The translations under genes were made by a program, and so were the position numbers. Of a stretch of 41,144 nt of DNA, positions 9,766 through 32,254 are shown piece by piece; position 1 is the first letter of the stretch; the number at the start of each line of letters is the position of its first letter. Source of the stretch: Alphaproteobacteria bacterium (GTDB lineage Bacteria; Pseudomonadota; Alphaproteobacteria; UBA8366); NCBI GenBank assembly GCA_050250795.1, contig JBFWNZ010000001.1, positions 1-41,144 on the forward strand, given 5' to 3'. Under the pieces are notes generated by a model, which saw only the letters and a list, made by a program, of their open reading frames with translations, was not told the origin of the DNA and searched no databases.

Positions 9766-9939
9766 TTATTTATGGCGCGCCCCGCCGGACTCGGGATCGT
9801 CGTCGCGGGCCCGGCTCTGCGCCTTGCGTTTCTGGAGGTTGCGCCGAAGCTGTTCCGCCTGCCGCCGCTGCCGCTCGGCCTTTGCCGCTTCGCCGGCCGC
9901 CGTGAGCGTCGGCCGCCGATGCTCGTCCCGCCCCGCCAT
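9766..9939 (-). CDS. Small basic hypothetical protein (57 aa)
   Basis: My own translation gives MAGRDEHRRPTLTAAGEAAKAERQRRQAEQLRRNLQKRKAQSRARDDDPESGGARHK. A GGAGG sits 5 nt upstream of the ATG (plus-strand cctcc at 9945-9949). The ORF is below the track cutoff. Confidence 0.4.
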   Translation of the reverse strand: MAGRDEHRRPTLTAAGEAAKAERQRRQAEQLRRNLQKRKAQSRARDDDPESGGARHK

Positions 9940-10065
9940 TTCGCCTCCGTGAGTCGCACTCGCGTCACGGCGCGATCCTGCCGACGCGATTGCGGCAGCG
10001 CAAGACCGCGCACCTTCCTTGCAGGCCGCGCGTCACTGTGGCATACACCCGCCCGCGCATCCGGC

Positions 10066-10140
<75 letters not shown>

Positions 10141-10244
10141 TCTTTCCCGATATCCCCGCCGCATGACATACCCGCAATTGCCCGGACTTGTGCCACGCCG
10201 GGACGGCGCTTTAGGGTGAGGCTGGGGAGACACCGAAGGGTGCG

Positions 10245-11669
10245 ATGACCGATCCCGTTGCCGGCGGTCCGGCACAACCAGGCAAGATCGCGAGTGCGGC
10301 CAGCGCGCCGGCAGGCATGCCGACCGGCGGCCTTGCCGCGCAGGGACGCGCGCTGGAGGAGAAGCAGGCCTTTGCAGAGGCCGCGCAGCTCTACGCGCTC
10401 TGGACCGGCATGGCGCCGCGCGATCCTGCCGCCTGGGCCGCGCTGGGCCGGGCCGAAATGCGCTGCCTGCGCGGCCGGGCGGCCGCGGCAGCTTTGAGCG
10501 AAGCCGCGCGGCTGGCGCCACGCGCCTACGCCATCCATCGCGATCTGGCCGCCGTCCTGACCGCCATCGGCCGCGCCGCCGAAGGCCAAGCGATGCTGCG
10601 GGCCCATTTCGCACAGTTTCCGCTGCTCGCGCTGCCGAGCCAGGCGCCGGTCGACGCGCCGGCTATCCTCATTTTCCGCGGTTTCAGCGGTACGCGCGCC
10701 GTTCTGGTGCGCAGCCGCATGCATGGCACGCGCGCAATGTTGCGCGGGGGCCATATGTCGCTCGAAGGATTGCTGGATCAGGACCGCATGCGGTCCATCG
10801 AATATACCGTCGCCGGCAACAATCTGAATTCATCGCCGCCGCCCGCCGCCTCGGTGTGGTTCAACAGCATCGCCGACCCCGATCTCGAACGCGAGACGCT
10901 TCAGTCGCTGACGGATCATCTGGAGGCGACCGGGCGCGCCTGCGTGAACCCTCCGGCGCGGGTGCTCGCGACCACGCGCGACGGCAATGCCCGCCGGCTG
11001 GCGCGTATTCCGGACATGGTGGTGCCGCGGACCCTCCGCGTTCCCGTTGCCGGGCGACCCACCGCCGAAATTGCCGCCGAGATCGCCGAGCATGGCCTTA
11101 CTCCCCCGCTGGTCCTGCAACGGGCAGGGACCATACTGGCCGATGCGCCGGTGCTGGCGCGCAAACGCGACGACATCGACGCATTCATCGTCGCAAACGC
11201 GGGCGACGAGTTCATCTATGCCGCCACCTACATCGACAACCCATATCGCGACCGACTGTACAACCGGAAACGGATGTTCTTCATCGACGGCAAGCCTTAT
11301 CCCGCCGCCTCCCATCTCGACGAGGACTGGGCGGTGAAAAGTGCGAACCGTCGAAAGGTCATGGCCCCTCATGTCTGGATGATGGAGCAGGAGCAGGAAT
11401 TCCTGGTCGATCCCGAGGCGTCGATCGGCGGCCTTGCCTTCTCGACCCTCGCCGAACTGCCCGATGCCATCGGCCTCGACTTCTTCGGCGTCGACTTCTC
11501 CGTCCTGCCGGACGGACGGCCGCTCGTCTACGCCGTCGGCGCCGCGATGGAGCCGGGCTTCGACCAGCCGCGCAGTTTCCCCTATACGCGACCGCATCTG
11601 CAGCGTATCGCCCAGGCCTTCCGCACCATGCTCGCGACACGGGTCGCCCCGCGCCCTCCCCTGCGATAG
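10245..11669 (+). CDS. TPR-repeat protein with a C-terminal ATP-grasp-like (RimK/glutathione-synthetase-type) domain
   Basis: 474-aa ORF. The N-terminus has Ala/Leu-rich TPR-like helices (AFAEAAQLYALWTGMAPRDPAAWAALGRAE). The C-terminus has IGLDFFGVDFSVLPDGRPLVYAVGAAM, which resembles ATP-grasp ligase cores seen in TPR fusion proteins. Confidence 0.6.
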   Translation: MTDPVAGGPAQPGKIASAASAPAGMPTGGLAAQGRALEEKQAFAEAAQLYALWTGMAPRDPAAWAALGRAEMRCLRGRAAAAALSEAARLAPRAYAIHRDLAAVLTAIGRAAEGQAMLRAHFAQFPLLALPSQAPVDAPAILIFRGFSGTRAVLVRSRMHGTRAMLRGGHMSLEGLLDQDRMRSIEYTVAGNNLNSSPPPAASVWFNSIADPDLERETLQSLTDHLEATGRACVNPPARVLATTRDGNARRLARIPDMVVPRTLRVPVAGRPTAEIAAEIAEHGLTPPLVLQRAGTILADAPVLARKRDDIDAFIVANAGDEFIYAATYIDNPYRDRLYNRKRMFFIDGKPYPAASHLDEDWAVKSANRRKVMAPHVWMMEQEQEFLVDPEASIGGLAFSTLAELPDAIGLDFFGVDFSVLPDGRPLVYAVGAAMEPGFDQPRSFPYTRPHLQRIAQAFRTMLATRVAPRPPLR

Positions 11670-16793: not shown

Positions 16794-17138
16794 CTGCGCC
16801 TCGCGATCCTCGCCGCCGCCATCCTCTGCCTGTTGCCGGGCGCGGTCTTCGCCCATGACGGTCCGCTGGACCGGATGGGCTGTCACGCCGATGCGGTCGC
16901 CCGCAACTACCACTGCCATGTCGGCCCGCTCGCCGGCCGCAGCTTCGCCGGCCGGGAGGATGCCTTGCAGGCGCTGCGGCGTCAGCAGGCCGCCGATCCC
17001 GGCCGGACGGTGGGCGAGACGCCGCGCGGCTGCTGCATGATCTGCCGCGAGGGCAAGCCCTGCGGCGACATCTGCATACCGGCCGACCAGGTCTGCCGCC
17101 GGCCGGCCGGTTGCGCCTGCAATGCGCTGGGGCGTTAG
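16794..17138 (+). CDS. Secreted YHYH-domain protein with a Cys-rich C-terminus. Probable non-canonical CTG start.
   Basis: HDGPLDRMGCHADAVARNYHCH is the YHYH-family motif. The in-frame upstream sequence encodes a signal peptide (M)RLAILAAAILCLLPGAVFA|HDG, with GGAGA 6 nt upstream of the CTG at 16794. No ATG or GTG is in frame after the stop at 16716. The track start (TTG at 16833) would remove the signal peptide. Confidence 0.6.
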   Translation: MRLAILAAAILCLLPGAVFAHDGPLDRMGCHADAVARNYHCHVGPLAGRSFAGREDALQALRRQQAADPGRTVGETPRGCCMICREGKPCGDICIPADQVCRRPAGCACNALGR

Positions 17139-17920
17139 GACTTCACCGACCAGGCGCCGTCGATCGGCAGGGTCGCCCCGTTGATCTCGCTCGCCCCGTC
17201 CGAGCACAGGAAGGTCACGAAGGACGCCACCTGCTCCGGCTTGACGAAGCGCCGCGAGGGCTGGCGGATCGCCATCAGATTGTACTCGGCCTCCTCGAAG
17301 GTCTGGCCGGTCTTCTCCATATGCGCATTGACCACGCGCATGCTGTGCGTGCCCAGAATCCAGCCGGGGCAGACCGCGTTGCAGGTGACGCCGCTCTCCG
17401 CCACCTCCAGCGCGATGCCCTTGGTCAGGCCCAGCATGGCCGCCTTGGTCGTCACGTAGTCGATGCGGTTCGGCACCGCCAGCAGGGCATAGATGGACGA
17501 GATGTTGATGATCCGGCCCCAGTTGCGCTCAAGCATCTTCGGCATCGCCTCGCGCGCTGCGTAGAAGGCGGCCGAGAGGTTGACGCGCAAGGCGCGCTCC
17601 CAGGCGTCGTCGGGGAAGTTCTGGAACTTGTCCGAATGGCGGACCCCGGCATTGTTGACCACGATGTCGAGCGATCCCAGCGCGGTCTCGGTCTCCGCCA
17701 CCATCTTCTTGATCGCGGCCGGATCGTTCAAATCGGCGATCCGATAGTCCACCTTGACACCGTAATCCGCGATCATCCGGTCGCGCTGCTTCTCGATCTT
17801 TTCGGGATCGCGGAAGCCGTTGAGCATGACGTTGGCGCCGGCCTCGGCCAGCGCATTGGCGATGGCGATGCCGAGGCTGCCGGACGAGCCGGTGACGAGC
17901 GCGCCTTTTCCCTTAAGCAT
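17135..17920 (-). CDS. bdhA: 3-hydroxybutyrate dehydrogenase (SDR family)
   Basis: 261-aa ORF with GKGALVTGSSGSLGIAIA (TGxxxGxG). It resembles BdhA-type SDRs overall (NAGVRHSDKF..., ...YVTTKAA...). Confidence 0.8.
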   Translation of the reverse strand: MLKGKGALVTGSSGSLGIAIANALAEAGANVMLNGFRDPEKIEKQRDRMIADYGVKVDYRIADLNDPAAIKKMVAETETALGSLDIVVNNAGVRHSDKFQNFPDDAWERALRVNLSAAFYAAREAMPKMLERNWGRIINISSIYALLAVPNRIDYVTTKAAMLGLTKGIALEVAESGVTCNAVCPGWILGTHSMRVVNAHMEKTGQTFEEAEYNLMAIRQPSRRFVKPEQVASFVTFLCSDGASEINGATLPIDGAWSVKS

Positions 17921-17980
17921 TCTTGTACCTCCCTGGATTGTCCCCGATTGCGGCCCGGTCGGCCGCGCGGATGCGGTACC

Positions 17981-18868
17981 TTAGCCCTTGAAGAAGCGCA
18001 TGAACCAGCCGAAGAGTTCGTCCGGCGCATGTTCGGGAACGTAGTGGCCGCAAGCGATGGGACCGCCCGTCACCTCGCCGGCGATCCGGTCGCGCCAGAT
18101 GTCGAGAACGTCCTTGTAGACCTTGCCGGTATGGCTGTCGGCGCCCCAGACGACCAGGGTCGGGCATTTCACCTTGTTGCCGGCCTTGTAATCCGCCTCG
18201 TCCAGCTCGAAGTCGATGGTCGCGCAGGCGCGATAGTCCTCGCAGCTCGCATGGATCGTCTTCCAGTTGAAGCAGCGGACGTATTCGGCGAAGGCTTCCT
18301 TGGTGAAGGGGGCGAGGCCGATGCCCTTCTTGCCCAGCTTCTTCTCCATGTACCACTCGGCCGGAACCGCGGCCATCATCCGCTCGGGGAAGTCGTAGGG
18401 CTGGATCATGAAGACCCAGTGCCACGAGTTCGTCGCCCAGTTCTTCGAGGTATGGGTCCAGACGTGATAGCTGGGCAGGATATCGACGAAGGCCGCGCGC
18501 TGGATTCGCTCCGGATGGTCCAGGGACATGCGGTGCGCAGTGCGCGCGCCGCGGTCGTGGCCCGCGACCATGAAGGTCTTGTAGCCCAGCGCCTCCATCA
18601 CATCGACCTGGTCCTGCGCCATGGCGCGGAAGGAATAGGGTGCATGCCGCTCGTCGGTCGGCGGCGCCGAGCTGTCGCCATAGCCGCGCAGATCGGCGGC
18701 CACGACATGGAAATGCTCGGCCAGCCGGTTGGCGATCTTGTGCCAGGACACATGGCTCAGCGGGTTGCCGTGCAGCAGCAGCAGCGGCGGGCCGCTGCCG
18801 CCGTGCTTCAGGCGGATGCGCGCACCGCCGCTGGTTTCGATATCGGTCTGGGTAAACCCTTCGAACAT
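17981..18868 (-). CDS. Alpha/beta hydrolase, haloacetate (fluoroacetate) dehalogenase family
   Basis: MFEGF...LLLLHGNPLSHVSWHKIA...ADLRGYGDSS...YSFRAMAQDQ...GHDRGARTAHRM...SWHWVF...SCEDYRA...CGHYVPE is collinear with the fluoroacetate dehalogenase family as I recall it. Confidence 0.8.
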   Translation of the reverse strand: MFEGFTQTDIETSGGARIRLKHGGSGPPLLLLHGNPLSHVSWHKIANRLAEHFHVVAADLRGYGDSSAPPTDERHAPYSFRAMAQDQVDVMEALGYKTFMVAGHDRGARTAHRMSLDHPERIQRAAFVDILPSYHVWTHTSKNWATNSWHWVFMIQPYDFPERMMAAVPAEWYMEKKLGKKGIGLAPFTKEAFAEYVRCFNWKTIHASCEDYRACATIDFELDEADYKAGNKVKCPTLVVWGADSHTGKVYKDVLDIWRDRIAGEVTGGPIACGHYVPEHAPDELFGWFMRFFKG

Positions 18869-18955
18869 GCCGTCTTCCTCCCTCGGCGCCGTTGGCGCGC
18901 CTGCGGGAGGGAGACTAGCACTCGAAATTGCGTCGCGATATCGCTTCGCAACCGC

Positions 18956-20323
18956 TCAACCGGCCAGGGCGACCAGCCGCATCAGCTCGCCGACCGCACC
19001 GGCTTCCGGCAGCTCGCGGCACAGCCGCACCGCCCGCTCCGCCCCCTTCTCGCCCAGCAGGCCGGCGGCGTTGGAGCGGAACTTGTCCTCCAGCTCCGGC
19101 ACGCTCAACGGGTTCTGCGGGTCGCCCTTGGGGAACATCCAGGTCGTCTGGTGTTTCGTGCCGTCCTTCAACGTGATCGTGACGCGGGCCGGGAAATTCT
19201 TCGGGTACAGCGTGTTCAACTCGTCGTCGGCCAGGACCTCGGTCTTGGCCAGCACGCCGCGGACCGCCGGGTCCTCCACCCTGTCGGGGCGGAACTGCGC
19301 CTGTCCCAGCGTCCGGTCCACCGCCGCCACCGCCATGCAGAAGGGCACGCTGATCCGGGCCGCCATCGAGCCATGCGGATCGTAGTTGGAGAAATGCGTG
19401 GTGACGGTGCGATAGGTCTCCAGCGTCAGCTTGGCGATGTCCGCCGGCTTCACGTCGTGCCGGTTGACCAGTTCCAGCGTGGCGCCGATGGGCGCATGGC
19501 TCGCCAGGATCGACGGATAGTATTTGAACCCGTTCTCCAGGATCTCCCATTTGGTGCCCAGGCCGGCGGCCAGCACCTCCGGCCGCGGCGCCTCGGTGAA
19601 GGCGGCGAGATAGCCCTTGTTCCGCTCCAGGATGGCGGGCGGCGCGGTGCCGCCGATGGCGGCCAGCTCGGCGCCCATGATGCCGTTCATCGCCGACTTG
19701 CCGGGATGCACGCTCTTGGTCATGTCGCCGGATTCGAAGAAGGCGTTGAGGCCGGCGGCCTGGGTGCCGGCAAAGCCCAGCGCCATCTCCGTGCGGTCCG
19801 CATCGAGGCCCAGCGCACGGGCCGCGGTGGCGCCGGCGCCGAAGGTGCAGTTGGTGGCGGTGGAGTGCCACTTCTCGTAATGGCTCGGCATCACCGCCAT
19901 GCCGACCCGCGACGCGACCTCGTAGCCCGCGACCACCGAGGCGAGCATCTCGCGCCCCGAAAGCCGCCGCGCCTCGGCCATCGCCAGCGCCGCCGGGATC
20001 ACGACAGACGAGATATGCGCCAGCGCGCCCTTATGCGTGTCGTCGTTGTCGGCGGCGTTCGACAGCACGCCGTTGGCGAAGGCCGCCAGCGGCGCGCGCG
20101 AGGCCAGCCCCCTCGCCCCCACGACATGCGCCTCGCCCTTGGCACCGAAGGACGCGACATACTCGCTGGCGACCCGGGTCTTCTCGCTGTCGACCTCCCA
20201 GGCGGCCAGGCAGCAGCCGAGATCGTCCAGCACCAGGTTGCAGGCCTGCTCGACGGCAGCCTGCGGCAAATCCTCGAAACGCAGGCCCGAGACGAACTCG
20301 GCAAGGCGGCGTGTCTCATGCAT
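18956..20323 (-). CDS. MmgE/PrpD family protein (paralog 1)
   Basis: I chose the start at MHETRRLAEFVSGLRFEDLPQAAVEQA, with GGAGGA 7 nt upstream, giving 455 aa. The typical PrpD N-terminal signature (xxLAxFvxxlxxxdlP) is present. Confidence 0.85.
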   Translation of the reverse strand: MHETRRLAEFVSGLRFEDLPQAAVEQACNLVLDDLGCCLAAWEVDSEKTRVASEYVASFGAKGEAHVVGARGLASRAPLAAFANGVLSNAADNDDTHKGALAHISSVVIPAALAMAEARRLSGREMLASVVAGYEVASRVGMAVMPSHYEKWHSTATNCTFGAGATAARALGLDADRTEMALGFAGTQAAGLNAFFESGDMTKSVHPGKSAMNGIMGAELAAIGGTAPPAILERNKGYLAAFTEAPRPEVLAAGLGTKWEILENGFKYYPSILASHAPIGATLELVNRHDVKPADIAKLTLETYRTVTTHFSNYDPHGSMAARISVPFCMAVAAVDRTLGQAQFRPDRVEDPAVRGVLAKTEVLADDELNTLYPKNFPARVTITLKDGTKHQTTWMFPKGDPQNPLSVPELEDKFRSNAAGLLGEKGAERAVRLCRELPEAGAVGELMRLVALAG

Positions 20324-20504
20324 GGGGCGATCCTCCGGTTGCGACGGCCTTTGCGGCCTTTCCGCCATTAACGCACAGGCCCCGGCCACCCGCCACCCGG
20401 CCGCCAAGGATGGCGGCCGCGCCGCGAACGCATGGCTCCGAGTCGACAATTAAAAATTGATCGATAAATTGCCATAATCTACTTTTAAGAAATGCTTCCG
20501 GCAC

Positions 20505-20532
20505 TTGAATTGCAGTATTTGTTCCCTATATG
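20505..20532 (+). promoter_or_regulatory. Putative sigma70-type promoter of the A-B-C cassette (TTGAAT - 16 nt - TATATG)
   Basis: Read from the sequence within the only strongly AT-rich intergenic stretch of the window (20445-20535). It is positioned about 28 nt upstream of the preferred A1 start at 20560. Confidence 0.35.
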
Positions 20533-20559
20533 TTCACGGCCACTTCCAGGAAAACCGCC

Positions 20560-21078
20560 ATGCCCGACACGATCCCACCGCGGCAACCCGGCTTCCGCGG
20601 CTATCTAGCCGAGCTGCGGGCCGATCCTGCCATCCCGTTCTGGCTGCGGGTTCTGTGCCTCCTGATGGCCGCCGCCATGCTGGTGGACGGCCTCATGCTG
20701 GTGGACTTTGCCGTCTTCCTCCGCCCGAGCCTGTCGCCCTGCCCAGGTTACTACCTGCCTTATTTCCTGCTGCCTAAGGGGCTGTCATGGGGCGTGATGA
20801 CGGCGAGCTACCTGTCGATTGCCTGTCTGCCTCCAACCCTTCGCTGGCGCCGCCCGATTATCCTTCTGGCCTGCCTCGCCGGCTGTTTCACGTTGCCTGC
20901 AATGCTTTTTTCCGAGATTTCTTTTTTCCTCACCCTGCTCTTCGATGTCTGGGACCCTCTTCCCAAAAGCTGCGATCTCCTTTTCAGAAGCCCTGCCCTC
21001 CTGCCCGTCGGTTCCATCGCACTGGTTCTGCTGCTCTTGTATTTCCAGGTCATTTTCCTGGTGGAGCGGAAACCATGA
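20560..21078 (+). CDS. Hypothetical 4-TM membrane protein (cassette protein A, copy 1)
   Basis: I chose the start at MPDTIPPRQPGFRGYLAEL, which aligns with the N-terminus of copy 2 (MSDILEPQRSRGFRGYLAEL) and has AGGA upstream. There are four hydrophobic segments. I recognise no known family. Confidence 0.7.
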   Translation: MPDTIPPRQPGFRGYLAELRADPAIPFWLRVLCLLMAAAMLVDGLMLVDFAVFLRPSLSPCPGYYLPYFLLPKGLSWGVMTASYLSIACLPPTLRWRRPIILLACLAGCFTLPAMLFSEISFFLTLLFDVWDPLPKSCDLLFRSPALLPVGSIALVLLLLYFQVIFLVERKP

Positions 21079-21686
21079 CTGCGCGTTGGTTGCCGTTTGG
21101 CAAGTTCCGTCCGCTGATCCGAACCCTCGCAGTCAAGATCGGGGTGAAAGTAGACCGGGTCATAACCGCCCTTTCGGACACCCCGTTCGTCAGGGTTTCG
21201 GCCAGGACCGTGTCAGCACTTCTCGGCTTCGTGATCCTCGCGCAGTCGGTCAACCTCCTGCTTACGGATATGGAGCCGCTGCGGCAGATTTATACAAATT
21301 CCGTCGATCACTGCCGCGATCAAAACCTCTCGGATTTCAGAATTTTACAGGTTGCATTCTGCATCGTCTTTCCTGTCGGATATTTCGTCCTGGCATTCTA
21401 TCCAACGAACCGACCAGAATGGCGCGCCGTCACCTGGTTTTCCACAGAAATCGGCCTTCTGTCTGCACCGGCTGCGTCCGTCGTGGATCTATTAATTCGT
21501 CTCAATTTAGACTGGCTTCTTATACGCGGAAACTGCGACCTACGACCGATATACGAATCCATCGCCCTCACGGTAAACCCGATCTTCTTTTTCTGCGTCC
21601 TGCTGATCCTGTCTATCCTGCTCTGGCACAGCAGGCGAGCGGATCGCAGAAGCCAGAAACAACATCAAGGATACAAAAATGGCTGA
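21075..21686 (+). CDS. Hypothetical 4-TM membrane protein (cassette protein B, copy 1)
   Basis: MTARWLPFGKFRPLIRTLAVKIGVKVDRVITALS... The ATG overlaps the A1 TGA (ATGA). It is homologous to residues from about 173 onward of the fused copy-2 protein. There are four hydrophobic segments and a basic C-terminal tail. Confidence 0.7.
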   Translation: MTARWLPFGKFRPLIRTLAVKIGVKVDRVITALSDTPFVRVSARTVSALLGFVILAQSVNLLLTDMEPLRQIYTNSVDHCRDQNLSDFRILQVAFCIVFPVGYFVLAFYPTNRPEWRAVTWFSTEIGLLSAPAASVVDLLIRLNLDWLLIRGNCDLRPIYESIALTVNPIFFFCVLLILSILLWHSRRADRRSQKQHQGYKNG

Positions 21687-22914
21687 TAAAAATTCAAATA
21701 TACCGGCTCCATCTGGAATCTTCGATATCCACGATGCTGCCGCGGCCGAAGCCGTCGCCTCACAACTTCCAGGTCGAGAAAATGGCCCTGCCGACGCCTA
21801 TCGTCACCTTCTCGGAGCTGCCGAGTTATCCCGCCAATATAAAGAAAGAACGGCAAGATTCATTCTCGATGCGAATGAACTTTTCTTCTTTGAAAGCAAG
21901 GAAGCAAAGGAGATGGATTACCACAACAACGCCATCGGCATCGAGATCGGCAAGACGGCGAAGAACTGGGACGAAGTGATTGCCATGAGCCGGGCTGCTA
22001 TCGACGCCGCCGGTATCGACGGCAAGGGAGACCGGCCCGACGCTGTGCGCTGGTTGCCGCCGGACCAGTGGCGAAAAAACCCGAAATACGAGCACGATCC
22101 GAAGCGGGAAATGCCGACGGAAGAGACCAACTGGTACACCAACCCCAACCGCCCCGACGGGATCGATTGGATCGGCGGCTATGTTCCGAATCCTTTGCCT
22201 AGGAAGCGGCTACCGGATATTCCGACCGATATGGCGCGTTCTCGGCGAGAAACGGTGCCGCTCGCGGCAATGACCGAGGCCGAGATGCGCCGCGCGATGA
22301 AAAGCGATGCCTATTGGACCGCAGGCCATCCCGAGCATCGCGCCGCGCAGCAGGCCGTCCGGGCATGGCACGACAACCGCTACGGCACCGCGCCGTCACC
22401 TCTCGACGCCGCCGGCCGGATGCGTCCGGTACCGGCCGCAGCACCGCATATCGCCCGGACCAGCGCGCGTGCCGATGCGTCGGCGCTCGCCTTGCCCCGG
22501 CGCATGGCGGCGGCTCAGCCCCCTGCGCCGGGTGGCCTGTTTACAAATGATGACATCCAGCAAAAGGCGACGCCGGACCAGGAGAACGCGCAGGCGTTGG
22601 ACCTGCTTTTGCGCTTCGCCCGGGACGCTCTGCGGAGCGGGGATGCCAGCGGCCTTCCCGACGCGGTGGACCGCGGCCTCGGCGGCCTGTTTCCCGCCAC
22701 CCCGCCCGGCCGGCCCGCGCCTTGGCGCCAGGCGGTGCAGGACACGATCAACGACCTCGCGGGCAGCGGCCGGCACGCAACGGCGGATGCCGAGCCCCTG
22801 CGCGACGACGGCGAGATCGGGCCCAGGACCGTCGCAGCCTTCGGCCGCACGCTGACCGGCGCCGGCCCAGACCGCTTCGTCCGGCGCCTCGCCCAGAATC
22901 TCGGATTTGCCTGA
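21679..22914 (+). CDS. Hypothetical soluble protein (cassette protein C, copy 1, full length): conserved N-terminal DAYRH/MDYHNN domain, Pro/Ala-rich linker, C-terminal peptidoglycan-binding-like motif
   Basis: 411-aa ORF with AGGA 7 nt upstream and an 8-nt overlap with B1. No signal peptide or TM segment is visible. The C-terminus DGEIGPRTVAAFGRTLT resembles the PG_binding_1 core (DGxxGPxTxxAxxxFQ). Confidence 0.75.
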   Translation: MADKNSNIPAPSGIFDIHDAAAAEAVASQLPGRENGPADAYRHLLGAAELSRQYKERTARFILDANELFFFESKEAKEMDYHNNAIGIEIGKTAKNWDEVIAMSRAAIDAAGIDGKGDRPDAVRWLPPDQWRKNPKYEHDPKREMPTEETNWYTNPNRPDGIDWIGGYVPNPLPRKRLPDIPTDMARSRRETVPLAAMTEAEMRRAMKSDAYWTAGHPEHRAAQQAVRAWHDNRYGTAPSPLDAAGRMRPVPAAAPHIARTSARADASALALPRRMAAAQPPAPGGLFTNDDIQQKATPDQENAQALDLLLRFARDALRSGDASGLPDAVDRGLGGLFPATPPGRPAPWRQAVQDTINDLAGSGRHATADAEPLRDDGEIGPRTVAAFGRTLTGAGPDRFVRRLAQNLGFA

Positions 22915-22921
22915 ACCGTCG

Positions 22922-22944
22922 CCCTCCCGGCTCCGCCGGGAGGG
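22922..22944 (+). terminator. GC-rich hairpin between cassette copies (CCCTCCCGG-ctccg-CCGGGAGGG), a possible attenuator or weak terminator
   Basis: A perfect 9-bp inverted repeat, read directly, lies 8 nt after the C1 stop. It is followed only by a weak T tract (ttcctcc), so termination efficiency is doubtful. Confidence 0.3.
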
Positions 22945-22974
22945 TTCCTCCGTTCCGACCCACGGACCTGCATC

Positions 22975-24102
22975 ATGAGCGATATCCTTGAACCGCAAAG
23001 AAGTCGCGGCTTCCGCGGCTATCTAGCCGAGTTGCGGGCCGATCCTGCCATCCCGTTCTGGCTGCGGGTTCTGTGCCTCTTGATGGCCGCCGCCATGCTG
23101 GTGGACGGCCTCATGCTGGTGGACTTTGCCGTCTTCCTCCGCCCGAGCCTGTCGCCCTGCCCAGGTTACTATCTGCTGTATTTCCTGCTGCCGAAGGGAC
23201 TTTCATGGGGCGTGATGACGGCGAGCTACCTGTCGATTGCCTGTCTGCCTCCGACCCTTCGCTGGCGCCGCCCGATAATCCTTCTGGCCTGTCTCGCCGG
23301 CTGCCTCGCGATGCCCGCGATATTTCTTTCCAACGTTCTTCTAATCGGCGCGCTTTTCAGTTCCGAGTATATGCTGCCCGACACTTGCGTGCTTTTGTTC
23401 AGAAGCCCCGCCCTGCTGTCCGTCAGCTTGATCGCGCTGGTCCTGCTGCTCCTCTATTTCCAGGTCATCTTCCTGGTGGAGCGGAAGCCATCGGCCGCGT
23501 ATCGGTTGCCGTCCCGCAAGCTCCATCCGCCGACCCGAAACCTCGCCGCCAGGATCGCAGTGCAGGCAGACCGGGTCATAACCGCCCTTTCGAACGCGCC
23601 CTACGTCAGGGTTGGCATCAGAACGGCGTCCGCGCTTCTCGGCTTCGCGAGCCTCGCTCAGTCGGTCAACATCCTGCTTACGGAGTTGGAACCGCTCCGG
23701 CAGATTTATACAGATATCATCGACCCATGCCTTAACCACGAGATCTCGGACTTCCGGATCCTACAGGTTGCCTTCAGCATCGTCTTGCTTGGCGGATATT
23801 TCGTCCTGGCATTCTATCCAACGAACCGACCGGAACGGCGCGCAGTCACCTGGCTCACCACAGAAATCGGGCTGTTATCCGCGCTGGCCGCGCTCGTCGC
23901 GAACCGGTTCGTTCGTCTCGATATTGAAGGGCTACATATACGTGAAGCTTGCAAGTTTCAACCAATCTACGAAACCATTTGTCTTACGATAAGCCCGATA
24001 TTCTTCTCCGTATCTCTGCTGATCCTGTTCGTCCTTCTCTGGCACAGCAGACGCACGGAACGCAGAACCCAACAATTTCAAGGAAACGAAAATGGCCGAT
24101 AA
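22975..24102 (+). CDS. Hypothetical 8-TM membrane protein (fused A-B, cassette copy 2)
   Basis: 375-aa ORF. Residues 1 to about 172 align with A1, and the remainder aligns with B1 (SAAYRLPSRKLHPPTRNLAARIAVQADRVITALS versus TARWLPFGKFRPLIRTLAVKIGVKVDRVITALS). Confidence 0.75.
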   Translation: MSDILEPQRSRGFRGYLAELRADPAIPFWLRVLCLLMAAAMLVDGLMLVDFAVFLRPSLSPCPGYYLLYFLLPKGLSWGVMTASYLSIACLPPTLRWRRPIILLACLAGCLAMPAIFLSNVLLIGALFSSEYMLPDTCVLLFRSPALLSVSLIALVLLLLYFQVIFLVERKPSAAYRLPSRKLHPPTRNLAARIAVQADRVITALSNAPYVRVGIRTASALLGFASLAQSVNILLTELEPLRQIYTDIIDPCLNHEISDFRILQVAFSIVLLGGYFVLAFYPTNRPERRAVTWLTTEIGLLSALAALVANRFVRLDIEGLHIREACKFQPIYETICLTISPIFFSVSLLILFVLLWHSRRTERRTQQFQGNENGR

Positions 24103-24625
24103 GACTTTCGAGACAGCGACCCCATCCGGCATCTGGGGCATCAAAAGGGCTGCCGAGGCCGCAGCGGTCGCGTCGCAGTTGCCGGGCCAACAAAGCGGCC
24201 CTGCGGACGCCTATCGTCACTTGCTTGGATCCGCTGAGTTAACCCGAAGAAAGGGTGAGTATCTCGCGCGGATCATCCTCGATTTGAATGAGATCATCTC
24301 TCTCGAAAGCAGGGAAGCAAAGGAGATGGATTACCACAACAACGCCATCGGCATCGAGATTGGCAAGACCGCCAAAAGCTGGGGCGAGGTTATCGTGAGG
24401 AGTCGAGCCGCCATCGACGCCGCCAGTATCGACGGCAAGGGAGACCGGCCCGACGCTGTGCGTTGGTTGCCGCCGGACCAGTGGCGGAAAAACCCGAAAT
24501 ACGAGCACGATCCGAAGCGGGAAATGCCGACGGAAGAGACCAACTGGTACACCAACCCCGGCCGTCCCAACGGCATCGACTGGATCGGCGGCGGCATTCC
24601 GAACCCTCTCGCCCGGAACAAATGA
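24092..24625 (+). CDS. Hypothetical soluble protein (cassette protein C, copy 2, N-terminal domain only; possibly a truncated derivative)
   Basis: 177-aa ORF with AGGA upstream and an 11-nt overlap with the fused A-B gene. It aligns with C1 residues 1 to about 175 and includes a 130/132-nt near-identical block. It ends where C1 continues. Confidence 0.7.
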   Translation: MADKTFETATPSGIWGIKRAAEAAAVASQLPGQQSGPADAYRHLLGSAELTRRKGEYLARIILDLNEIISLESREAKEMDYHNNAIGIEIGKTAKSWGEVIVRSRAAIDAASIDGKGDRPDAVRWLPPDQWRKNPKYEHDPKREMPTEETNWYTNPGRPNGIDWIGGGIPNPLARNK

Positions 24626-24773
24626 GGGGATTTGGACCCTTACCGGATACTTCGGCCCATATCGCCATTCCCCCAAGAACGCCGCCGACGTCTCGCCCGG
24701 CCTCTCGGCTTCGCGTAAGCGAACGGCAATGCGGCGGGACGTCCCGATGTCGCGCGCGGCCCGCCGCGATGCC

Positions 24774-25571
24774 TCAGCGGCCGGTAAAGACCGGGCTGCG
24801 CTTTTCCATGAAGGCGGTGCGGCCTTCCTTATAGTCCTGGCTGTCGAAGCAGCGGCGGCCGAGTTCGGCCACAAGCGCCGGATCGCGGTCGGCCGGATCC
24901 TTCAGCAGGTCGGCGATGGTGAGCTTGGAGGCCAGGATCGACAGCGGCGCATTGTCCACGATGGTCGCCGCATAGTCTCGGGTCATCGCTTCCAGCTCCG
25001 CGGCCGGGACCACCCGGTTGACGAGGCCGATGCGCAGCGCCTCCTCGGCCGGAACGCGCCGGGCGCTGAACAGGATGTCGCGGGCGTAGGCCGGCCCGAC
25101 CAGCGAGATCAGCCGGCGGATATGCAGCGGCGAATAGGCGATGGAGAGCCGCGCCGCGGGGATGCCGAGCTGCGAGTCGTCGGAGACGAAGCGCATGTCG
25201 GCGACCATCGCCAGCGCCAGACCGCCGCCCAGGCAATAGCCGCGGACCATCGCGATCAGCGGCTTCTCGATGGAGGCCAGCTTCTCGCGCGAGGCATCGC
25301 TGATGCGGGCATATTCCTCGGCCGCGTCGGCGTTGGCGCGCACCTTCTCGAACTGCGAGATATCGGCGCCGGAGACGAAGGCCTTGTCGCCCGCGCCCTT
25401 CATCACCACGACGCGGACGCTGTCGTCGGCGCTGAAATCGTCGACGATCTGGGACAGCGCCTCCCACATCTCCATCGACATGGCGTTGCGGCGGGCCGGG
25501 TTGTTGAAGGTGATCCAGCCGATCCCGTTGTCCTTCTCGGCCAGCATCTTGTCGGTATTGAGCGCGAGCAT
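24774..25571 (-). CDS. Enoyl-CoA hydratase/isomerase family protein
   Basis: I chose the start at MLALNTDKMLAEKDNGIGWITFNNPARRNAMS, with AGGAGG upstream, giving 265 aa. It is crotonase-fold (GAGDKAFVSGADISQF). Confidence 0.85.
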   Translation of the reverse strand: MLALNTDKMLAEKDNGIGWITFNNPARRNAMSMEMWEALSQIVDDFSADDSVRVVVMKGAGDKAFVSGADISQFEKVRANADAAEEYARISDASREKLASIEKPLIAMVRGYCLGGGLALAMVADMRFVSDDSQLGIPAARLSIAYSPLHIRRLISLVGPAYARDILFSARRVPAEEALRIGLVNRVVPAAELEAMTRDYAATIVDNAPLSILASKLTIADLLKDPADRDPALVAELGRRCFDSQDYKEGRTAFMEKRSPVFTGR

Positions 25572-29772: not shown

Positions 29773-31149
29773 CTACCTACGGCTTGCGCAGAGCGCAACG
29801 AGCTTGCGCAGGTCGTCCAGCCCATCCAGGCCGTCGACCGTCGCAACGATCCGAGCCGCCTGCTCGCGGCCGACGATGGGATCGACAAGGTCGTGGAACT
29901 TCTCGACCAGCTTGCCCCATTGCCGCGGCAGATCCGCATCGGGCACGCCGACATCGCCATGCTCGCGCAGGACGAGACCGCCCTTCAGCGAGACGATCAC
30001 GTCGGCCTGCGACTTGGGCATGGCGGCATCGCCGACGACGAAGATACGGTCGCGCAACGACTGGATAACCGGCTCGGCCGTCTTCTCCGCCGAATAGTTG
30101 TCCAGCTTGGCCGTGCTCTGCCCCGACAGGGCCATGGCCGAGGTGAAGCGCAGGCTGAACTTGCCCTCCAGCCCCGTGGTCGGGTGCTGGATGTTGCACA
30201 TCTTGAGATAGCGCATGCCGAGCCGTATCTCGACGCGCTCGATCTCCTCGGGCTTGAAACCGTGATCGGCGCGCAGCTTCTTCGCGGCCTCGATGGTGGC
30301 ATGCGTGCCGTAGCAGGCGGCGTGATACTTGAACAGCACACCCGGCGTGTGGAAGACCCGGCCCAGCCCATCGGCGGCCGCTGCCGCATCGAAGGCCGGG
30401 GACTGGGTATCGGAGAAGCCCTGCTCGCACTCCAGCACATCCGGCCGCGCGACGAAGCCGCGACGGGTCAGCAGCGCCGCATACAGGCCGTTCTGCGCCG
30501 CCTTGCCCGCATGCAGCGGCTTGCACATCGTCCCGAACATCGACTTGAGCCCGGCTGCCTGCGTGCCGGCGATACCGAAGGTGTTGGCGCATCGATCAGC
30601 GTCGAAGCCGAAGAAACGCGCGGCCGCCGCCGCCGCCCCGAAAGTGCCCACGGTGCCCGTGGCGTGCCATCCGGCGGTGTAGTGCCCCTCCGTCATGCCC
30701 ATGCCGACCCGGCATTCGGTCTCGATGCCGGCGGCGATGGCGGTGATGATGTCCCGGCCGCTCGCGCCATGGACCTCGGCCAGCGCCAGCAGGACCGGCA
30801 TAACCGGCACCGAGGGATGGCCCGGCATCGCCTCCTGCACGTCGTCGAAGTCGAGCGCGTGGCCCATTGTGCCGTTGACCAGCGCCGCCTGAAGCATGGA
30901 GGTCTTGCGGCCGTCGGCCAGCAACGTCGCTTGGGCATTGCCGCCCTGCTCCATCGCCTCGTCGCGCACCATGCCGACCAGTGGATCGTCGACGCCGGCC
31001 AGCGTGACGCCGATCCAGTCCAGCAGGCAATGCCGCGCATAGCCGCGAACATTCTCGGGCAGCGCCTCATAGCGGAGCGACATCGCATTCTCCGCCAGCC
31101 GGCGGGTCAGCCCCTTTGCACGCGCAAGATTGACGGCCTGTTCCGACAT
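29773..31149 (-). CDS. MmgE/PrpD family protein (paralog 2)
   Basis: I chose the start at MSEQAVNLARAKGLTRRLAENAMSLRYEALPENV, with AGGAGGAA upstream, giving 458 aa. It is collinear with paralog 1. Confidence 0.85.
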   Translation of the reverse strand: MSEQAVNLARAKGLTRRLAENAMSLRYEALPENVRGYARHCLLDWIGVTLAGVDDPLVGMVRDEAMEQGGNAQATLLADGRKTSMLQAALVNGTMGHALDFDDVQEAMPGHPSVPVMPVLLALAEVHGASGRDIITAIAAGIETECRVGMGMTEGHYTAGWHATGTVGTFGAAAAAARFFGFDADRCANTFGIAGTQAAGLKSMFGTMCKPLHAGKAAQNGLYAALLTRRGFVARPDVLECEQGFSDTQSPAFDAAAAADGLGRVFHTPGVLFKYHAACYGTHATIEAAKKLRADHGFKPEEIERVEIRLGMRYLKMCNIQHPTTGLEGKFSLRFTSAMALSGQSTAKLDNYSAEKTAEPVIQSLRDRIFVVGDAAMPKSQADVIVSLKGGLVLREHGDVGVPDADLPRQWGKLVEKFHDLVDPIVGREQAARIVATVDGLDGLDDLRKLVALCASRR

Positions 31150-31234
31150 CGCTTCCTCCTCAGCATTCCTTGCGGCTGCGCCGCTGTTGTTACCGCAACT
31201 CTCGCATGCACGGCCCGCGCGAGTCGATAGGCCC

Positions 31235-32254
31235 TCAGACCGTCGCGACGGGTGTCGCGGGCGATCCGACGGCACCGGGAAGGCGCAATGGCGGCGCGGT
31301 CAGAAGAAAGCGGCTGCGGCCGTTGGCATGCAGCCACTCCGCAAGCTCGGTCAGGTACCACATCTCGCCCAGATGCACGCCCAGCTTGAACAGGCAATGC
31401 TCGTGCAGGCTGAGATTCGGCCCCTTGTCGGTCCGGCGGTTCAACTGTCCCGTCTCATATTCCACCGCCCGGCTGTCGGCGACCAGGGCGGCCACGCCGC
31501 TGTCCGTCACCCATTGCAGCAGCTTCGGATCGGTTCCGTCGAGGGCGGGGCAGCGGCCGAACAGGGCCTGCGGATCGGGGTCGCCCGCCATCTCCACCAG
31601 CATCCGGCCGAAATTGGTGTGAAGGAGAAGCATGTCGCCCTCCTCCACCTCGACCTTGTCGGCATCCATCACCCGCATCAGCTCGTCGTAGCCGATGCCG
31701 CGTCCCTGACCGGGGAAATGGCGGTGCAGATCGATCAGCACGCCGCGGCCCTGGACACAGGTCTCGGCCATGTTCTGAATGCCGAGATGCATCGCGCCAA
31801 GCGCGCCTTGCCGGCCCCGACCCGTCGCCGGATCGACCACATGATGGCCGTTGTAGAAGACATTCTCCGGCACGCCGTCGCCGTCGGCATCGAACACGCC
31901 GCCGTAATGGGCGAAGGAATCCCACTGTGTCGAATACTGGTTGTAGAGCAGGACGCCGTCGTCGCAGGTGACGTCGGTCAGGTTGGCATGCGCCACAGAA
32001 AGCCGCAGGTTGAACGCCACCTGGCCCTCGCGCATGACCGGCTGCAATACCGGCGGCAGACGGCGCGGGTTCAGCTTTGTGCCGCCGGGCAGGTCCAGCG
32101 GCAGGCTGAGGCAGAAGGTGCGGCCGACCTTGACCTCGGCGACCGCCCGCAGCACGCGCTCCGGCGTCAGCAGGTTCATCCGGCCCTTTTCGTCGTCCGG
32201 GCCGAATTCGCCCCAATTGGACCCTTCCGGGCGGTTCTTCCAGCGTTGCGCCAC
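31235..32254 (-). CDS. Cyclase-family protein (putative metal-dependent hydrolase, kynurenine-formamidase-like fold)
   Basis: The start is a GTG at 32254, with GGGAGGA 5 nt upstream, and the translation begins (M)AQRWKNRPEGSNWGEFGPDDEKGRMNLL. The motif YSTQWDSFAHYG resembles the cyclase-family metal site. The product is 339 aa. Confidence 0.7.
   Translation of the reverse strand: MAQRWKNRPEGSNWGEFGPDDEKGRMNLLTPERVLRAVAEVKVGRTFCLSLPLDLPGGTKLNPRRLPPVLQPVMREGQVAFNLRLSVAHANLTDVTCDDGVLLYNQYSTQWDSFAHYGGVFDADGDGVPENVFYNGHHVVDPATGRGRQGALGAMHLGIQNMAETCVQGRGVLIDLHRHFPGQGRGIGYDELMRVMDADKVEVEEGDMLLLHTNFGRMLVEMAGDPDPQALFGRCPALDGTDPKLLQWVTDSGVAALVADSRAVEYETGQLNRRTDKGPNLSLHEHCLFKLGVHLGEMWYLTELAEWLHANGRSRFLLTAPPLRLPGAVGSPATPVATV

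Follow-up and report, generated by a model that had tools for sequence, protein, structure and literature searches.

One of the systems closest to the locus described here is BteO-BtiO, the Bacteroides fragilis GA3 T6SS effector-immunity pair (He et al., PNAS 2025; PMC12541434; PDB 9UU0/9UU1). BteO is a DUF6973 toxin that kills rival bacteria by disturbing the cell wall, with toxicity confined to the periplasm and neutralized by its neighbor BtiO. The toxin binds OmpA-C-like domains, its toxicity is abolished by R143A, H144A, H167A, E168A, D187A or D191A, and it showed no peptidoglycan hydrolase or amidase activity, acting by binding rather than catalysis (PMC12541434). The present locus likewise encodes proteins with a DUF6973 domain (C1 and C2), each adjacent to a gene for an envelope-located partner, and the expected site of action is again the periplasm. 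It differs in that BteO has an N-terminal transmembrane (TM) helix whereas C1 and C2 have neither a TM helix nor a signal peptide, in that BteO lies in a T6SS variable region with its immunity gene beside it within that locus whereas C1 and C2 lie among metabolic genes, and in its host, an alphaproteobacterium rather than a member of the Bacteroidota.

The X-Tfe/X-Tfi pairs of the X-T4SS (a 2015 study as cited by Sgro et al. 2019; PMC6536674) resemble the locus in placing the toxic domain at the N-terminus and a delivery or anchoring region at the C-terminus, and in having an immunity gene directly upstream and apparently co-transcribed, immunity that faces the periplasm where the effector acts there, and a scattered distribution over the chromosome. 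However, the upstream proteins here span the membrane several times and are not lipoproteins, C1 and C2 have no XVIPCD, and no VirB/VirD4 genes are present on the contig.

The CDI/Rhs-type arrays, polymorphic toxin loci with orphan modules, are reportedly the subject of 2012 work by Zhang, Aravind and colleagues. The likeness lies in one toxin domain joined to many delivery modules across taxa, hypervariable cognate partners, tandemly duplicated toxin-immunity modules of which one is without its delivery part, and mosaic divergence suggestive of recombination. The polarity is opposite to that of these arrays, in that the toxin domain here is N-terminal and the truncated copy is without its C-terminal part; moreover, immunity genes in the arrays lie downstream, and the candidate immunity genes here upstream.

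We conclude that the block is probably a chromosomal, strain-variable, duplicated effector-immunity locus for competition between bacteria.

Layout and composition of the block

The window is the whole stretch of DNA that was analyzed, 41,144 nucleotides in length. The block is flanked by minus-strand genes for PrpD (start at 20323) and enoyl-CoA hydratase (stop at 24774), both families being confirmed by Pfam, and the ORF listing and a check of the sequence bear out the coupled plus-strand ORFs, overlaps and borders described in the earlier note. The features are as follows.

20324-20559, plus strand: divergent PrpD/A1 intergenic region, with an AT-rich promoter-like stretch and hexamer pairs at 20443-20470 and 20450-20478
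20560-21078, plus strand: A1, 172 aa, four-helix inner-membrane protein, candidate immunity protein
21075-21686, plus strand: B1, 203 aa, four-helix membrane protein, candidate second immunity protein
21679-22914, plus strand: C1, 411 aa, putative leaderless DUF6973 (BteO-like) effector
22921-22945, plus strand: G+C-rich hairpin with an 11 bp stem, directly 3' of the C1 stop
22975-24102, plus strand: A2B2, one 375-aa ORF fusing A-type and B-type units, with eight predicted TM helices
24092-24625, plus strand: C2, 177 aa, the DUF6973 domain alone
20589-22194, no strand assigned: repeat unit 1, bounded by local alignments and repeat families
23007-24607, no strand assigned: repeat unit 2, bounded in the same way

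The A1/B1 junction is an ATGA overlap (21075-21078), and the B1/C1 and A2B2/C2 junctions are overlaps of 8 nt and 11 nt respectively. The start of A1 is placed at ATG 20560, not at 20530, by the homologues P0008, P0010 and P0012 and a conserved ATGCCC.

The deviant composition previously claimed for the block is evident in both measures: its G+C is 0.53-0.60 against ~0.67 (1-kb windows give 0.527-0.59, and 0.63-0.72 elsewhere in the window), and the cassette ORFs have a GC3 of 0.57-0.74, that of the flanking genes being 0.80-0.92. The AT-rich region ahead of the cassette had also been described as the only strongly AT-rich promoter-like part of the window, and a promoter scan of 4.7 kb finds its two sites there and nowhere else (AT-rich spacer 20443-20478), although two sites are no more than chance would give (expected 1.1 +/- 1.1). 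The hairpin behind C1 may be a terminator or an RNA-stabilizing element between the modules. The fold of 22905-22980 has an energy of -29.1 kcal/mol, but its z-score relative to shuffled sequence is only -1.9; the hairpin is not followed by a T-run and is not among the calls of the terminator scan.

Tandem duplication and the fused second copy

The tandem duplication noted earlier is real. Five families of direct repeats have spacings of 2413-2418 nt and identities of 73-96%, giving a period of ~2,415 nt, and beyond 24607 no significant homology is found. The part of C1 encoding its tail (~22195-22914) lies outside the duplicated unit. The cassette is duplicated as proposed, except that A and B form a single fused ORF in copy 2 and C2 is shorter than C1 by the final 234 residues, its mid module and tail. 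Fusion results from a net 1-nt difference; the repeat spacing is 2415 nt before the A/B junction and 2416 nt after it, and copy 2 has lost the stop codon of A, with CCATCGGC in place of the CCATGAC of copy 1. A2B2 has a 4+4 helix pattern by hydropathy and AF2, and a search of 5.8 billion clusters matches it to itself alone. The fusion is known from one MAG assembly only, so that a recent frameshift or a mistake in assembly could account for it.

C2 is 77-78% identical to C1. Divergence between the copies is greatest in the 3' part of A, the whole of B and residues 1-72 of C, the last being the region homologous to the BteO binding groove. The dN/dS values between copies 1 and 2 (A 0.43, B 0.48, C 0.22) show that both copies were under purifying selection for most of the time since they began to diverge, and no positive selection between them is seen. 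This bears on whether copy 2, with its fused A2B2 and shortened C2, and perhaps also the split A1/B1 pair, are functionless products of frameshift and deletion in a decaying remnant. The net 1-nt difference between the split and fused states and the 234 residues absent from C2 would agree with decay, as would the A gene of the close relative L008, which has a TAG stop and frameshifts, and low GC3 could mean relaxed selection. We nonetheless hold decay to be improbable given the purifying selection. None of the five cassette ORFs is disrupted; they have Shine-Dalgarno-like sequences, and their start and stop codons are coupled. Furthermore, the split A-B junction with its overlap recurs in the independent assembly L008, and the predicted topology allows the A2B2 fusion, since it has A ending and B beginning on the cytoplasmic side of the membrane.

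The DUF6973 proteins and their homologues

Both C proteins match Pfam PF22322 (DUF6973) well above the gathering threshold of 27, C1 with 40.4 bits (E 2.6e-10) and C2 with 42 bits (E 8.2e-11). C1 has three parts: the DUF6973 domain (~aa 12-175), a mid module (aa 176-285) that jackhmmer finds to be common to many family members of 270-310 aa, and a tail (aa 286-411) that it finds in one Magnetospirillum protein only. For this tail, described earlier as cell-wall-binding, Pfam gives no match in C1 itself; of two DUF6973 homologues with sub-threshold PG_binding_3 tails, one shares the tail of C1.

A profile of 102 homologues matches PDB 9uu0_A, MBP-BteO(83-end), with E 2.6e-6, and the matched 65-aa stretch of BteO scores 43.9 bits on DUF6973. 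Similarity between C1 and BteO spans only ~65 residues (26% identity, pairwise E 0.007), a further difference from that pair. The AF2 model of C1 is confident (block-mean pLDDT of at least 83 for residues 11-170 and at least 90 for 21-170), and Foldseek of this model against PDB gives nothing at E <= 0.001 and does not return 9UU0. With a chain offset of 296, BteO residues R143/H144, E168 and D191 map to R42/H43, E67 and D80 of C1, which are invariant or more than 90% conserved among the 102 sequences and present in both C1 and C2. The profile and residue comparisons show C1 and C2 as DUF6973 family members that keep the R-H, E and D residues on which BteO depends for toxicity and OmpA binding. 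By analogy, C would itself be toxic.

Homologues elsewhere associate this domain with export and with the envelope. It is fused in Lysobacter to X-Tfes_XVIPCD (the X-T4SS signal), in proteins of ~1,900 to >2,100 aa to 12-25 RTX repeats (T1SS), and in others to LysM or to three CW_binding_2 (CWB2) repeats; in L001 an Imm11 gene adjoins the LysM-DUF6973 proteins, a further likeness to CDI/Rhs loci. At most loci with an N-terminal DUF6973, a same-strand ORF of 110-215 aa stops no more than 150 nt before the DUF6973 gene or overlaps its start, and its product usually has one to four hydrophobic segments; tandem partner-DUF6973 pairs recur in L024 and L030. These upstream partners form 31 unrelated BLAST clusters, and a small envelope-protein gene directly upstream is the rule for DUF6973 loci. 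Lipoproteins, or single-pass proteins with a ~120-aa soluble domain, are the partners at most other loci. The Lysobacter X-Tfes with DUF6973 and XVIPCD have a lipobox lipoprotein gene upstream, which fits the X-Tfi immunity-gene rule (PMC6536674).

These partners also bear on whether A and B could form dedicated machinery for export or release, in the manner of a holin or of type 10 secretion, bringing leaderless C to the producer's periplasm or cell wall for secretion or controlled lysis. Small, coupled multi-TM proteins whose genes overlap the start of a signal-less, envelope-acting protein are the classic holin-endolysin layout, also resembling type 10 secretion (TtsA, Salmonella Typhi), and the LysM, CWB2 and sub-threshold PG_binding_3 links of homologues, the small DUF6973 proteins of uncultured Caudovirales and the absence of another export route from the contig all agree with it; the C1 model also gives a weak, non-significant Foldseek match to TtsA (E 4.6). 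We nevertheless regard such a device as unlikely. Partners at most other loci are not holin-like, homologues bring their own secretion signals (XVIPCD or RTX), BteO showed no hydrolase or amidase activity on peptidoglycan (PMC12541434), and a ratio of four paralogous membrane units to two cargo proteins suits an immunity array better than a channel. A holin-like lysis pair, which the earlier note had listed, is unsupported, there being no PHROG match, phage gene or peptidoglycan-hydrolase family here.

Membrane proteins, variability of the site and a model for the locus

A1 has four hydrophobic segments, with an RWRR loop between TM2 and TM3, and no family match in Pfam, NCBIfam, PADLOC or PHROG. 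B1 matches the A-homologue P0010 by BLASTP (E 6e-12), and A and B were also joined in one HMM; the two are distantly related paralogues within a single orphan family of four-helix membrane proteins that is seen in this lineage only. The description of the cassette as a candidate novel system of no recognizable family was overstated for C, a clear DUF6973 protein in the family of the characterized BteO, and holds for A and B, which are true orphans. A and B occupy the position typical of immunity genes, and this together with their predicted topology suggests that they are immunity proteins. That they belong instead to an anti-phage defense module with a membrane-disrupting effector, as was also proposed, is barely credible. 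Variable, duplicated loci of odd composition with membrane proteins are common among defense systems, and the B2 part has very weak SLATT-like matches (PADLOC RTasSLATT E 0.0013, 16.5 bits; NCBIfam SLATT_5 E 0.034), but none of the five proteins has a convincing PADLOC score, sensor, nuclease and NTPase components are absent, and the C family holds a characterized antibacterial effector and secretion-signal fusions.

Relatives in which the PrpD DNA is 91-92% identical have an A-C pair in the corresponding position, downstream of a promoter region that they share with the window. Over 20324-20565, which includes the first two codons of A, mean column identity among the window, L007 and L002 is 91%, and the AT-rich core is mostly invariant; the rest of A is ~43% and C ~60% identical at the DNA level. 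Their A proteins are only 28-34% identical and their C proteins about 50%, against 95-98% for the flanking proteins. Because relatives keep the pair while A varies so strongly, the locus is hypervariable at a conserved chromosomal site and not a fresh insertion. The earlier island claim is half right: the composition is deviant, but the locus holds the same position in the close relatives L002 and L007, and no mobility gene or tRNA is found beside the block. Conservation of site and promoter region among core metabolic genes, purifying selection on both copies, and the action of BteO by binding would also suit a housekeeping or regulatory module, in which C binds the cell's own OmpA/Pal-type proteins to remodel the envelope, A and B are membrane regulators, and there is no antagonism. 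We give this very little weight: A and C diverge between genomes far beyond their flanks, partners are unrelated between lineages, and both the X-T4SS and T1SS module fusions and the sole characterized family member point to antagonism.

Of the three readings first offered, the evidence favors the effector with membrane immunity. By analogy with BteO, C1 would leave the cell through a secretion system whose genes lie at another place in the genome, and act in the periplasm of a neighboring cell. There its helical groove (R42/H43, E67, D80) may engage a peptidoglycan-associated envelope target, that of BteO being an OmpA-C-like domain, and so disturb cell-wall homeostasis. Against this model, C1 and C2 contain neither an XVIPCD nor an RTX signal, and the rest of the 41-kb contig likewise lacks both and has no secretion system. 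The translationally coupled A and B genes would encode N-in/C-in four-helix inner-membrane proteins, whose periplasmic loops may bind and neutralize the cognate effector, shielding the producer from its sisters. Module 2 (A2B2 and C2) retains the DUF6973 domain and the candidate immunity units without the mid module and tail, and would therefore be an orphan-like module retained mainly for immunity. The best reading is of two effector-immunity modules, the second without a delivery or anchoring tail. C belongs to a known family, so this DUF6973 locus is most likely a further instance of a system type already described, here coupled to a family of membrane proteins, A/B, not seen before.

Organization of the duplicated cassette and its position in relatives

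The window, of 41,144 bp, is an entire contig of an alphaproteobacterial MAG. Between the minus-strand MmgE/PrpD and enoyl-CoA hydratase (ECH) genes lies a plus-strand block of five coupled open reading frames, all of them present where the earlier note had placed them. A1, B1 and C1 constitute copy 1 of a tandem cassette, and A2B2 and C2 constitute copy 2; A and B are four-helix membrane proteins and C is a soluble protein. The features of the block and of the contig beyond it are:

start at 20323, minus strand: MmgE/PrpD gene, divergent left neighbour of the block
20560-21078, plus strand: A1, first ORF of copy 1
21075-21686, plus strand: B1, with an ATGA overlap with A1
21679-22914, plus strand: C1 (source locus tag AB7G39_00145), with an 8-nt overlap with B1
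22921-22945: G+C-rich hairpin with an 11-bp stem and without a T-run, directly 3' of the C1 stop codon
22975-24102, plus strand: A2B2 (source locus tag AB7G39_00150), a single 375-aa ORF
24092-24625, plus strand: C2, with an 11-nt overlap with A2B2
stop at 24774, minus strand: enoyl-CoA hydratase gene, convergent right neighbour of the block
29773-31275, minus strand: second MmgE/PrpD-family paralogue, ~5 kb downstream of the locus
38606-38701, minus strand: tRNA-SeC (anticodon TCA), called by ARAGORN

The tandem duplication and the deviant composition reported for this block are both borne out. Five repeat families are spaced 2413-2418 nt apart with 73-96% identity, and the repeat-unit boundaries fall at 20589/23007 on the left and 22194/24607 on the right; the last 234 residues of C1 are outside the duplicated unit, and residual homology past the C2 stop codon is non-significant (score 22 versus 18 +/- 2.8 for shuffles). 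The G+C content of the block is 0.53-0.60 compared with ~0.67, or 0.53-0.59 in 1-kb windows compared with 0.63-0.72 in the rest of the contig, and GC3 is 0.57-0.74 for the cassette ORFs and 0.80-0.92 for the flanking genes. The hairpin that follows C1 may serve as a transcriptional separator of the two modules; in folding energy it is ahead of shuffles by only 1.9 sd.

The remainder of the contig is replete with housekeeping and metabolic genes (RNase E/G, hisD/hisG, dcd, cytochrome bd, HpaB and others), including those for an EPSP-synthase-family protein (PF00275) and the second PrpD paralogue. The neighbours of this paralogue are a putative-cyclase-family gene, HpaB, HpcH-aldolase and MFS genes, a setting that points to catabolism of organic acids or aromatics, with two dehydratases of the PrpD type. 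Also present are very long antisense ORFs without stops, such as that at 17111-20371 (plus strand, 1086 aa) opposite the PrpD, abhydrolase and SDR genes; these are artefacts of the 67% G+C content, and codon-position G+C distinguishes them from real genes. There are no integrase, transposase, phage or secretion genes on the 41-kb contig, no Rfam families within 19500-25500, and no tRNA at the locus, the nearest being at 10066 and 38606.

Close relatives carry a related gene pair at the same position. The contigs L002-L007, on which the two external A homologues P0010 and P0012 are encoded, have an abhydrolase-PrpD segment (divergent), an A-like gene and a DUF6973 gene, with no B, and their flanking proteins are 95-98% identical to those of the window. 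Mean column identity among the window, L007 and L002 is 91% across 20324-20565 (the PrpD-A intergenic region plus the first two A codons), and the AT-rich promoter-like core of the intergenic region is mostly invariant. DNA identity between the window and L007 is 0.92 in PrpD, 0.78 in the intergenic region, 0.74 in the first 35 codons of A, 0.43 in the rest of A and 0.60 in the C N-domain. PrpD DNA identity to the relatives is 0.91-0.92 and A protein identity is 28-34%; the relatives' A genes are also low in G+C (0.51-0.53). A third close relative, L008 (JGI 3300001605), has the order A, B, C with the same ATGA junction as copy 1. Its A gene, in 1-480, is disrupted by a TAG in frame, by a deletion and by a frameshift (the gene caller's out-of-frame 97-aa product is P0011) and is either a decayed unit or a sequencing error in an old assembly; the downstream B is intact, with 87% DNA identity to B1.

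A metagenome scan with the PrpD N-terminus (80 loci) found no empty PrpD junction, although only one of these loci, L103 (on a contig shared with L004), is from a close relative, and the rest are at most ~60% identical and non-syntenic. The proposal that the block is an island is sustained as to composition, but not as to mobility: there are no mobility genes or tRNA, and an A-C pair is located at the same PrpD junction in L002 and L007. The shared site, the conserved promoter region and the divergent genes in the relatives identify a resident hypervariable locus, not a recent insertion. Extreme divergence between near-identical genomes also contradicts a housekeeping envelope module, an explanation that we consider quite improbable.

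The C proteins are members of the DUF6973 family

The C proteins had been described as lacking any recognisable family, but both pass the curated gathering threshold (27 bits) by which membership of Pfam DUF6973 (PF22322) is defined here, with C1 scoring 40.4 bits and C2 42 bits. Neither C1 nor C2 has a match in NCBIfam or PADLOC, and in PHROGs there is one match to C1, of unknown function (E 0.005), and none to C2. The literature library that was searched has no paper naming DUF6973 or PF22322. Single-sequence phmmer searches of the PDB with C1, and likewise with A2B2, were empty; a profile of 102 homologues compared with PDB sequences matched 9uu0_A (E 2.6e-6), an MBP fusion of BteO(83-end), a T6SS effector of Bacteroides fragilis GA3. 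The 65 BteO residues within this match reach 43.9 bits on the DUF6973 model, and BteO is thus a member of the family, its own description stating no homology to known proteins (PMC12541434).

BteO is toxic only when directed to the periplasm (He et al., PNAS 2025; PMC12541434), and its effects are elongated cells, blebbing and lysis. It lacks glycosidase or amidase activity in vitro, binds OmpA-family proteins via their OmpA-C-like domains, and is neutralised by BtiO, an adjacent periplasmic protein that mimics the OmpA-C-like domain; toxicity is lost in each of the substitutions R143A, H144A, H167A, E168A, D187A and D191A (PMC12541434). With a chain numbering offset of 296, which reproduces every residue listed in that paper, BteO R143/H144, E168 and D191 correspond to C1 R42/H43, E67 and D80, and all four are also present in C2. 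No exception to E67 or D80 occurs among the 102 homologues, in which R42 and H43 are each conserved at more than 90%; BteO H167 and D187 are not kept in C1, which has N66 and A76 instead.

An AF2 model of C1 (102 homologues) is mostly helical and predicts the greater part of the N-terminal domain with confidence (block-mean pLDDT >= 83 across residues 11-170 and >= 90 across 21-170); in that domain four long helices lead into a tryptophan-rich coil. A Foldseek search of the PDB with this model gave nothing at E <= 0.001, with 9UU0 not listed, and the link that we propose between C and BteO comes from sequence profiles only. The same program run against BFVD gave only other DUF6973 proteins of uncultured phages, all with E >= 1.6e-3. 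The best structural matches (A0A6J7WY85, A0A6J5T7E5 and A0A6J5KNR3; E 1.6e-3 to 6e-3, probability 1.00) are small (152-165 aa) DUF6973 proteins plus a 900-aa PcfJ-like protein, all from uncultured Caudovirales, and the domain is therefore also phage-borne.

Domain fusions, partner genes and the A/B family

The wider family was surveyed through 77 DUF6973 loci from a one-genome-per-species scan and 230 proteins from a profile search. DUF6973 is N-terminal in Proteobacteria, with varying modules after it; in Bacteroidota and certain other lineages it is C-terminal, the arrangement of classical polymorphic toxins. Its delivery or anchor partners across lineages are XVIPCD, RTX/HCBP, LysM and CW_binding_2, with BteO being a T6SS effector. 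XVIPCD (PF20410), the VirD4-recognition signal of the bacteria-killing X-T4SS, is joined to DUF6973 in the Lysobacter proteins P0057 and P0068, and in Streptomyces DUF6973 is joined to three CW_binding_2 repeats. Three loci (L014, L022 and L033) encode proteins of ~1,900 to >2,100 aa in which DUF6973 is combined with 12-25 RTX repeats, a feature indicative of T1SS substrates, and a 772-aa partial protein of L012 has two such repeats. The endosymbiont of Acanthamoeba sp. UWC8 (L001; CP004403, 410285-424276) has two LysM proteins with C-terminal DUF6973, of 1104 aa (983 aa inside the locus) and 663 aa, and downstream of each gene is a multi-TM ORF (134 aa with 4 TM, and 239 aa with 6 TM). Several transposase fragments and a gene of the Imm11 immunity family are in the vicinity, and the whole forms a polymorphic-toxin-like array carried by an intracellular symbiont.

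Many proteobacterial DUF6973 proteins share a mid module of ~100 residues after the domain, and many alphaproteobacterial members of 200-310 aa end, after this module, in an arginine-rich motif of approximately V-H-V-x-A-Y-x-R-x-G-G-K-x-x-V-x-A-x-x-R-x-x-P (P0003 and P0006, and loci L017-L019, L024, L026, L029-L031, L035, L041, L043, L046 and L049), which could be a secretion signal. Some relatives have a precomputed Pfam assignment to PF26745 that the local Pfam copy does not report. C1 consists of the DUF6973 domain, the mid module and a tail, with the end motif degenerate. Its tail is common only to a Magnetospirillum protein with a sub-threshold PG_binding_3 match, and tails with such a match are encoded by L010 and L011. 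The cell-wall-binding tail that had been attributed to C1 is thus weakly and indirectly suggested through the Magnetospirillum protein, but C1 itself has no such Pfam match. In C1 and C2 there is no PF20410 match at E <= 1 and no HemolysinCabind (RTX) match; the two proteins accordingly differ from X-Tfe effectors in lacking a C-terminal XVIPCD and from RTX/T1SS substrates in lacking calcium-binding nonapeptide repeats.

A combined ORF and HMM analysis of the 77 loci reveals a recurring pattern of partner genes. At most loci with N-terminal DUF6973 a co-oriented ORF of 110-215 aa is located upstream, ending no more than 150 nt from the start or overlapping it; C-terminal-DUF6973 genes have instead a downstream ORF of 134-239 aa, often with hydrophobic segments. 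Most upstream partners have one N-terminal hydrophobic segment and a soluble domain of ~120 residues, and in at least two (L013 and L021) a lipobox-like TAC motif closes the hydrophobic segment; multi-pass partners are found at L009, L033, L037, L038, L042 and L055. In two complete Lysobacter genomes a gene for a 119-aa lipobox lipoprotein precedes the DUF6973-XVIPCD gene, a position matching the pattern published for X-Tfi immunity genes (PMC6536674). BLAST groups the 51 partners into 31 unrelated clusters, and no partner has a Pfam family. Tandem partner-DUF6973 pairs occur at L024 and L030 as well. A different arrangement of the presumed pair is found at L169 (ENA ERZ13693099 NODE_129, 7719-11620), where two DUF6973 genes (306 and 325 aa) are ~1.4 kb apart, and after each comes a convergent ORF of 203-216 aa that has no Pfam match, with no co-oriented upstream partner.

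The A and B proteins have very few relatives. When 5.8 billion protein clusters were queried with A2B2 in a word-indexed search, the sole match was A2B2, and exhaustive phmmer searching of 1.84 billion representatives yielded, besides the window's A1 and B1, only the external A homologues P0010 (180 aa and 34% identical) and P0012 (177 aa and 28% identical), with no external B homologue. A1 and B1 compared directly give a non-significant match, and B1 matches the A homologue P0010 with a BLASTP E-value of 6e-12, which makes A and B distant paralogues within a single family of ~180 residues, of which the window's locus has four units. Each unit has four hydrophobic helices, and the topology is predicted to be N-in/C-in from the basic N-terminus and an R-W-R-R loop between helices 2 and 3, with a conserved cysteine in each predicted periplasmic loop in most members. 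Such a topology is compatible with the A2-B2 fusion. The AF2 model of A2B2 (five sequences) is all-helical with a mean pLDDT of 53 and was used for the 4+4 helix pattern only. An HMM of the A/B family has no match in the other 77 DUF6973 loci, and none of the five proteins has a meaningful match in NCBIfam, PADLOC or PHROGs. The BtiO type of immunity protein, with a signal peptide and a soluble OmpA-C-like fold, was considered for A and B and rejected; they have four hydrophobic helices and no match to OmpA or any other Pfam family. A polytopic family in the immunity position, duplicated and once fused, is new.

A role in anti-phage defence is highly improbable: what speaks for it is a SLATT-like match (PADLOC RTasSLATT, E 0.0013, 16.5 bits) covering 56 residues of A2B2, and there is no significant PADLOC match. 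The cassette layout would also fit a holin-like export or release device, which we regard as unlikely given that the partners elsewhere are lipoproteins or single-pass proteins and that homologues bear secretion signals. Neither is there a phage or hydrolase signature, with Pfam finding no hydrolase family, the neighbours being metabolic, and PHROGs giving no family beyond the single match of C1 (E 0.005), of unknown function; the block does not qualify as a phage lysis cassette.

Divergence of the two copies and proposed function

Both copies have evolved as coding sequence under purifying selection, with dN/dS between copies of 0.43 (A), 0.48 (B) and 0.22 (C domain), all values <0.6, and positive selection between them is not detected by dN/dS. 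That the block is a decaying remnant is improbable and is contradicted by dN/dS values well below 1, even though A2B2 may have become fused, and C2 truncated, only recently, and an error of assembly could also account for the fusion. The first 110 codons of A have 93% protein identity between copies and dS of 0.2, and C residues 73-175 have 89% identity and dS of 0.45, and protein identity falls to 61-63%, with dS of 0.5-1.25, in the remaining part of A, throughout B and in C residues 1-72. This old, divergent block spans the candidate immunity units and the part of C aligned to the BteO binding groove (BteO 118-191), which is what co-diverging cognate pairs would look like; dS rises along with dN, indicating a mosaic history rather than positive selection.

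We think it probable that the locus is a pair of effector-immunity modules, in which C is a BteO-like effector and A and B confer immunity. C1 is made leaderless in the cytoplasm; it would be exported by a system encoded off this contig and would act in the target-cell periplasm, its conserved groove engaging a peptidoglycan-associated envelope protein, as for BteO. A and B would reside in the inner membrane of the producer, where their periplasmic loops would block the incoming effector. In copy 2 the putative toxin domain is retained together with a fused candidate immunity protein, and the mid module and tail are missing, an organization reminiscent of orphan modules in polymorphic toxin loci. 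The analysis establishes the family membership, the domain fusions, the pattern of partner genes, the hypervariability and the purifying selection; toxicity, immunity, target and delivery are inferred from these. Other features of such loci are present too, including one domain with varied modules, an adjacent variable envelope partner, and divergence between near-identical genomes.

A more speculative proposal, which we hold to be doubtful, is that A/B represents a new polytopic inner-membrane class of immunity proteins against BteO-like effectors, or a release device for a leaderless effector acting in the periplasm, and, separately, that T1SS, T4SS and T6SS all serve to deliver DUF6973 as a pan-bacterial toxin domain whose R-H/E/D residues act catalytically. 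The near-invariance of R-H/E/D in hundreds of lineages is a hint that these residues may be catalytic and not simply engaged in binding and, if this is true, it would revise the 'non-enzymatic' model proposed for BteO.

The cassette was put forward as a candidate novel system, a view that we do not retain: effector-immunity pairs are of a well-known kind and the effector family has a characterised member in BteO, so that the window's cassette is of an ordinary kind, though unusual in some details. What is new is the DUF6973-BteO link together with the breadth of the family's delivery contexts, and the presence of a BteO-like domain in an alphaproteobacterium without a visible delivery route. 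A previously uncharacterised Pfam family, with members in Proteobacteria, Bacteroidota, Actinomycetota and phages, is now tied to a T6SS effector characterised in 2025, and the prediction is that hundreds of 'hypothetical' two-gene loci are envelope-targeting effector-immunity pairs. The at least 31 unrelated candidate immunity families, the orphan A/B family among them, would provide a natural set for understanding how one toxin groove can be blocked.
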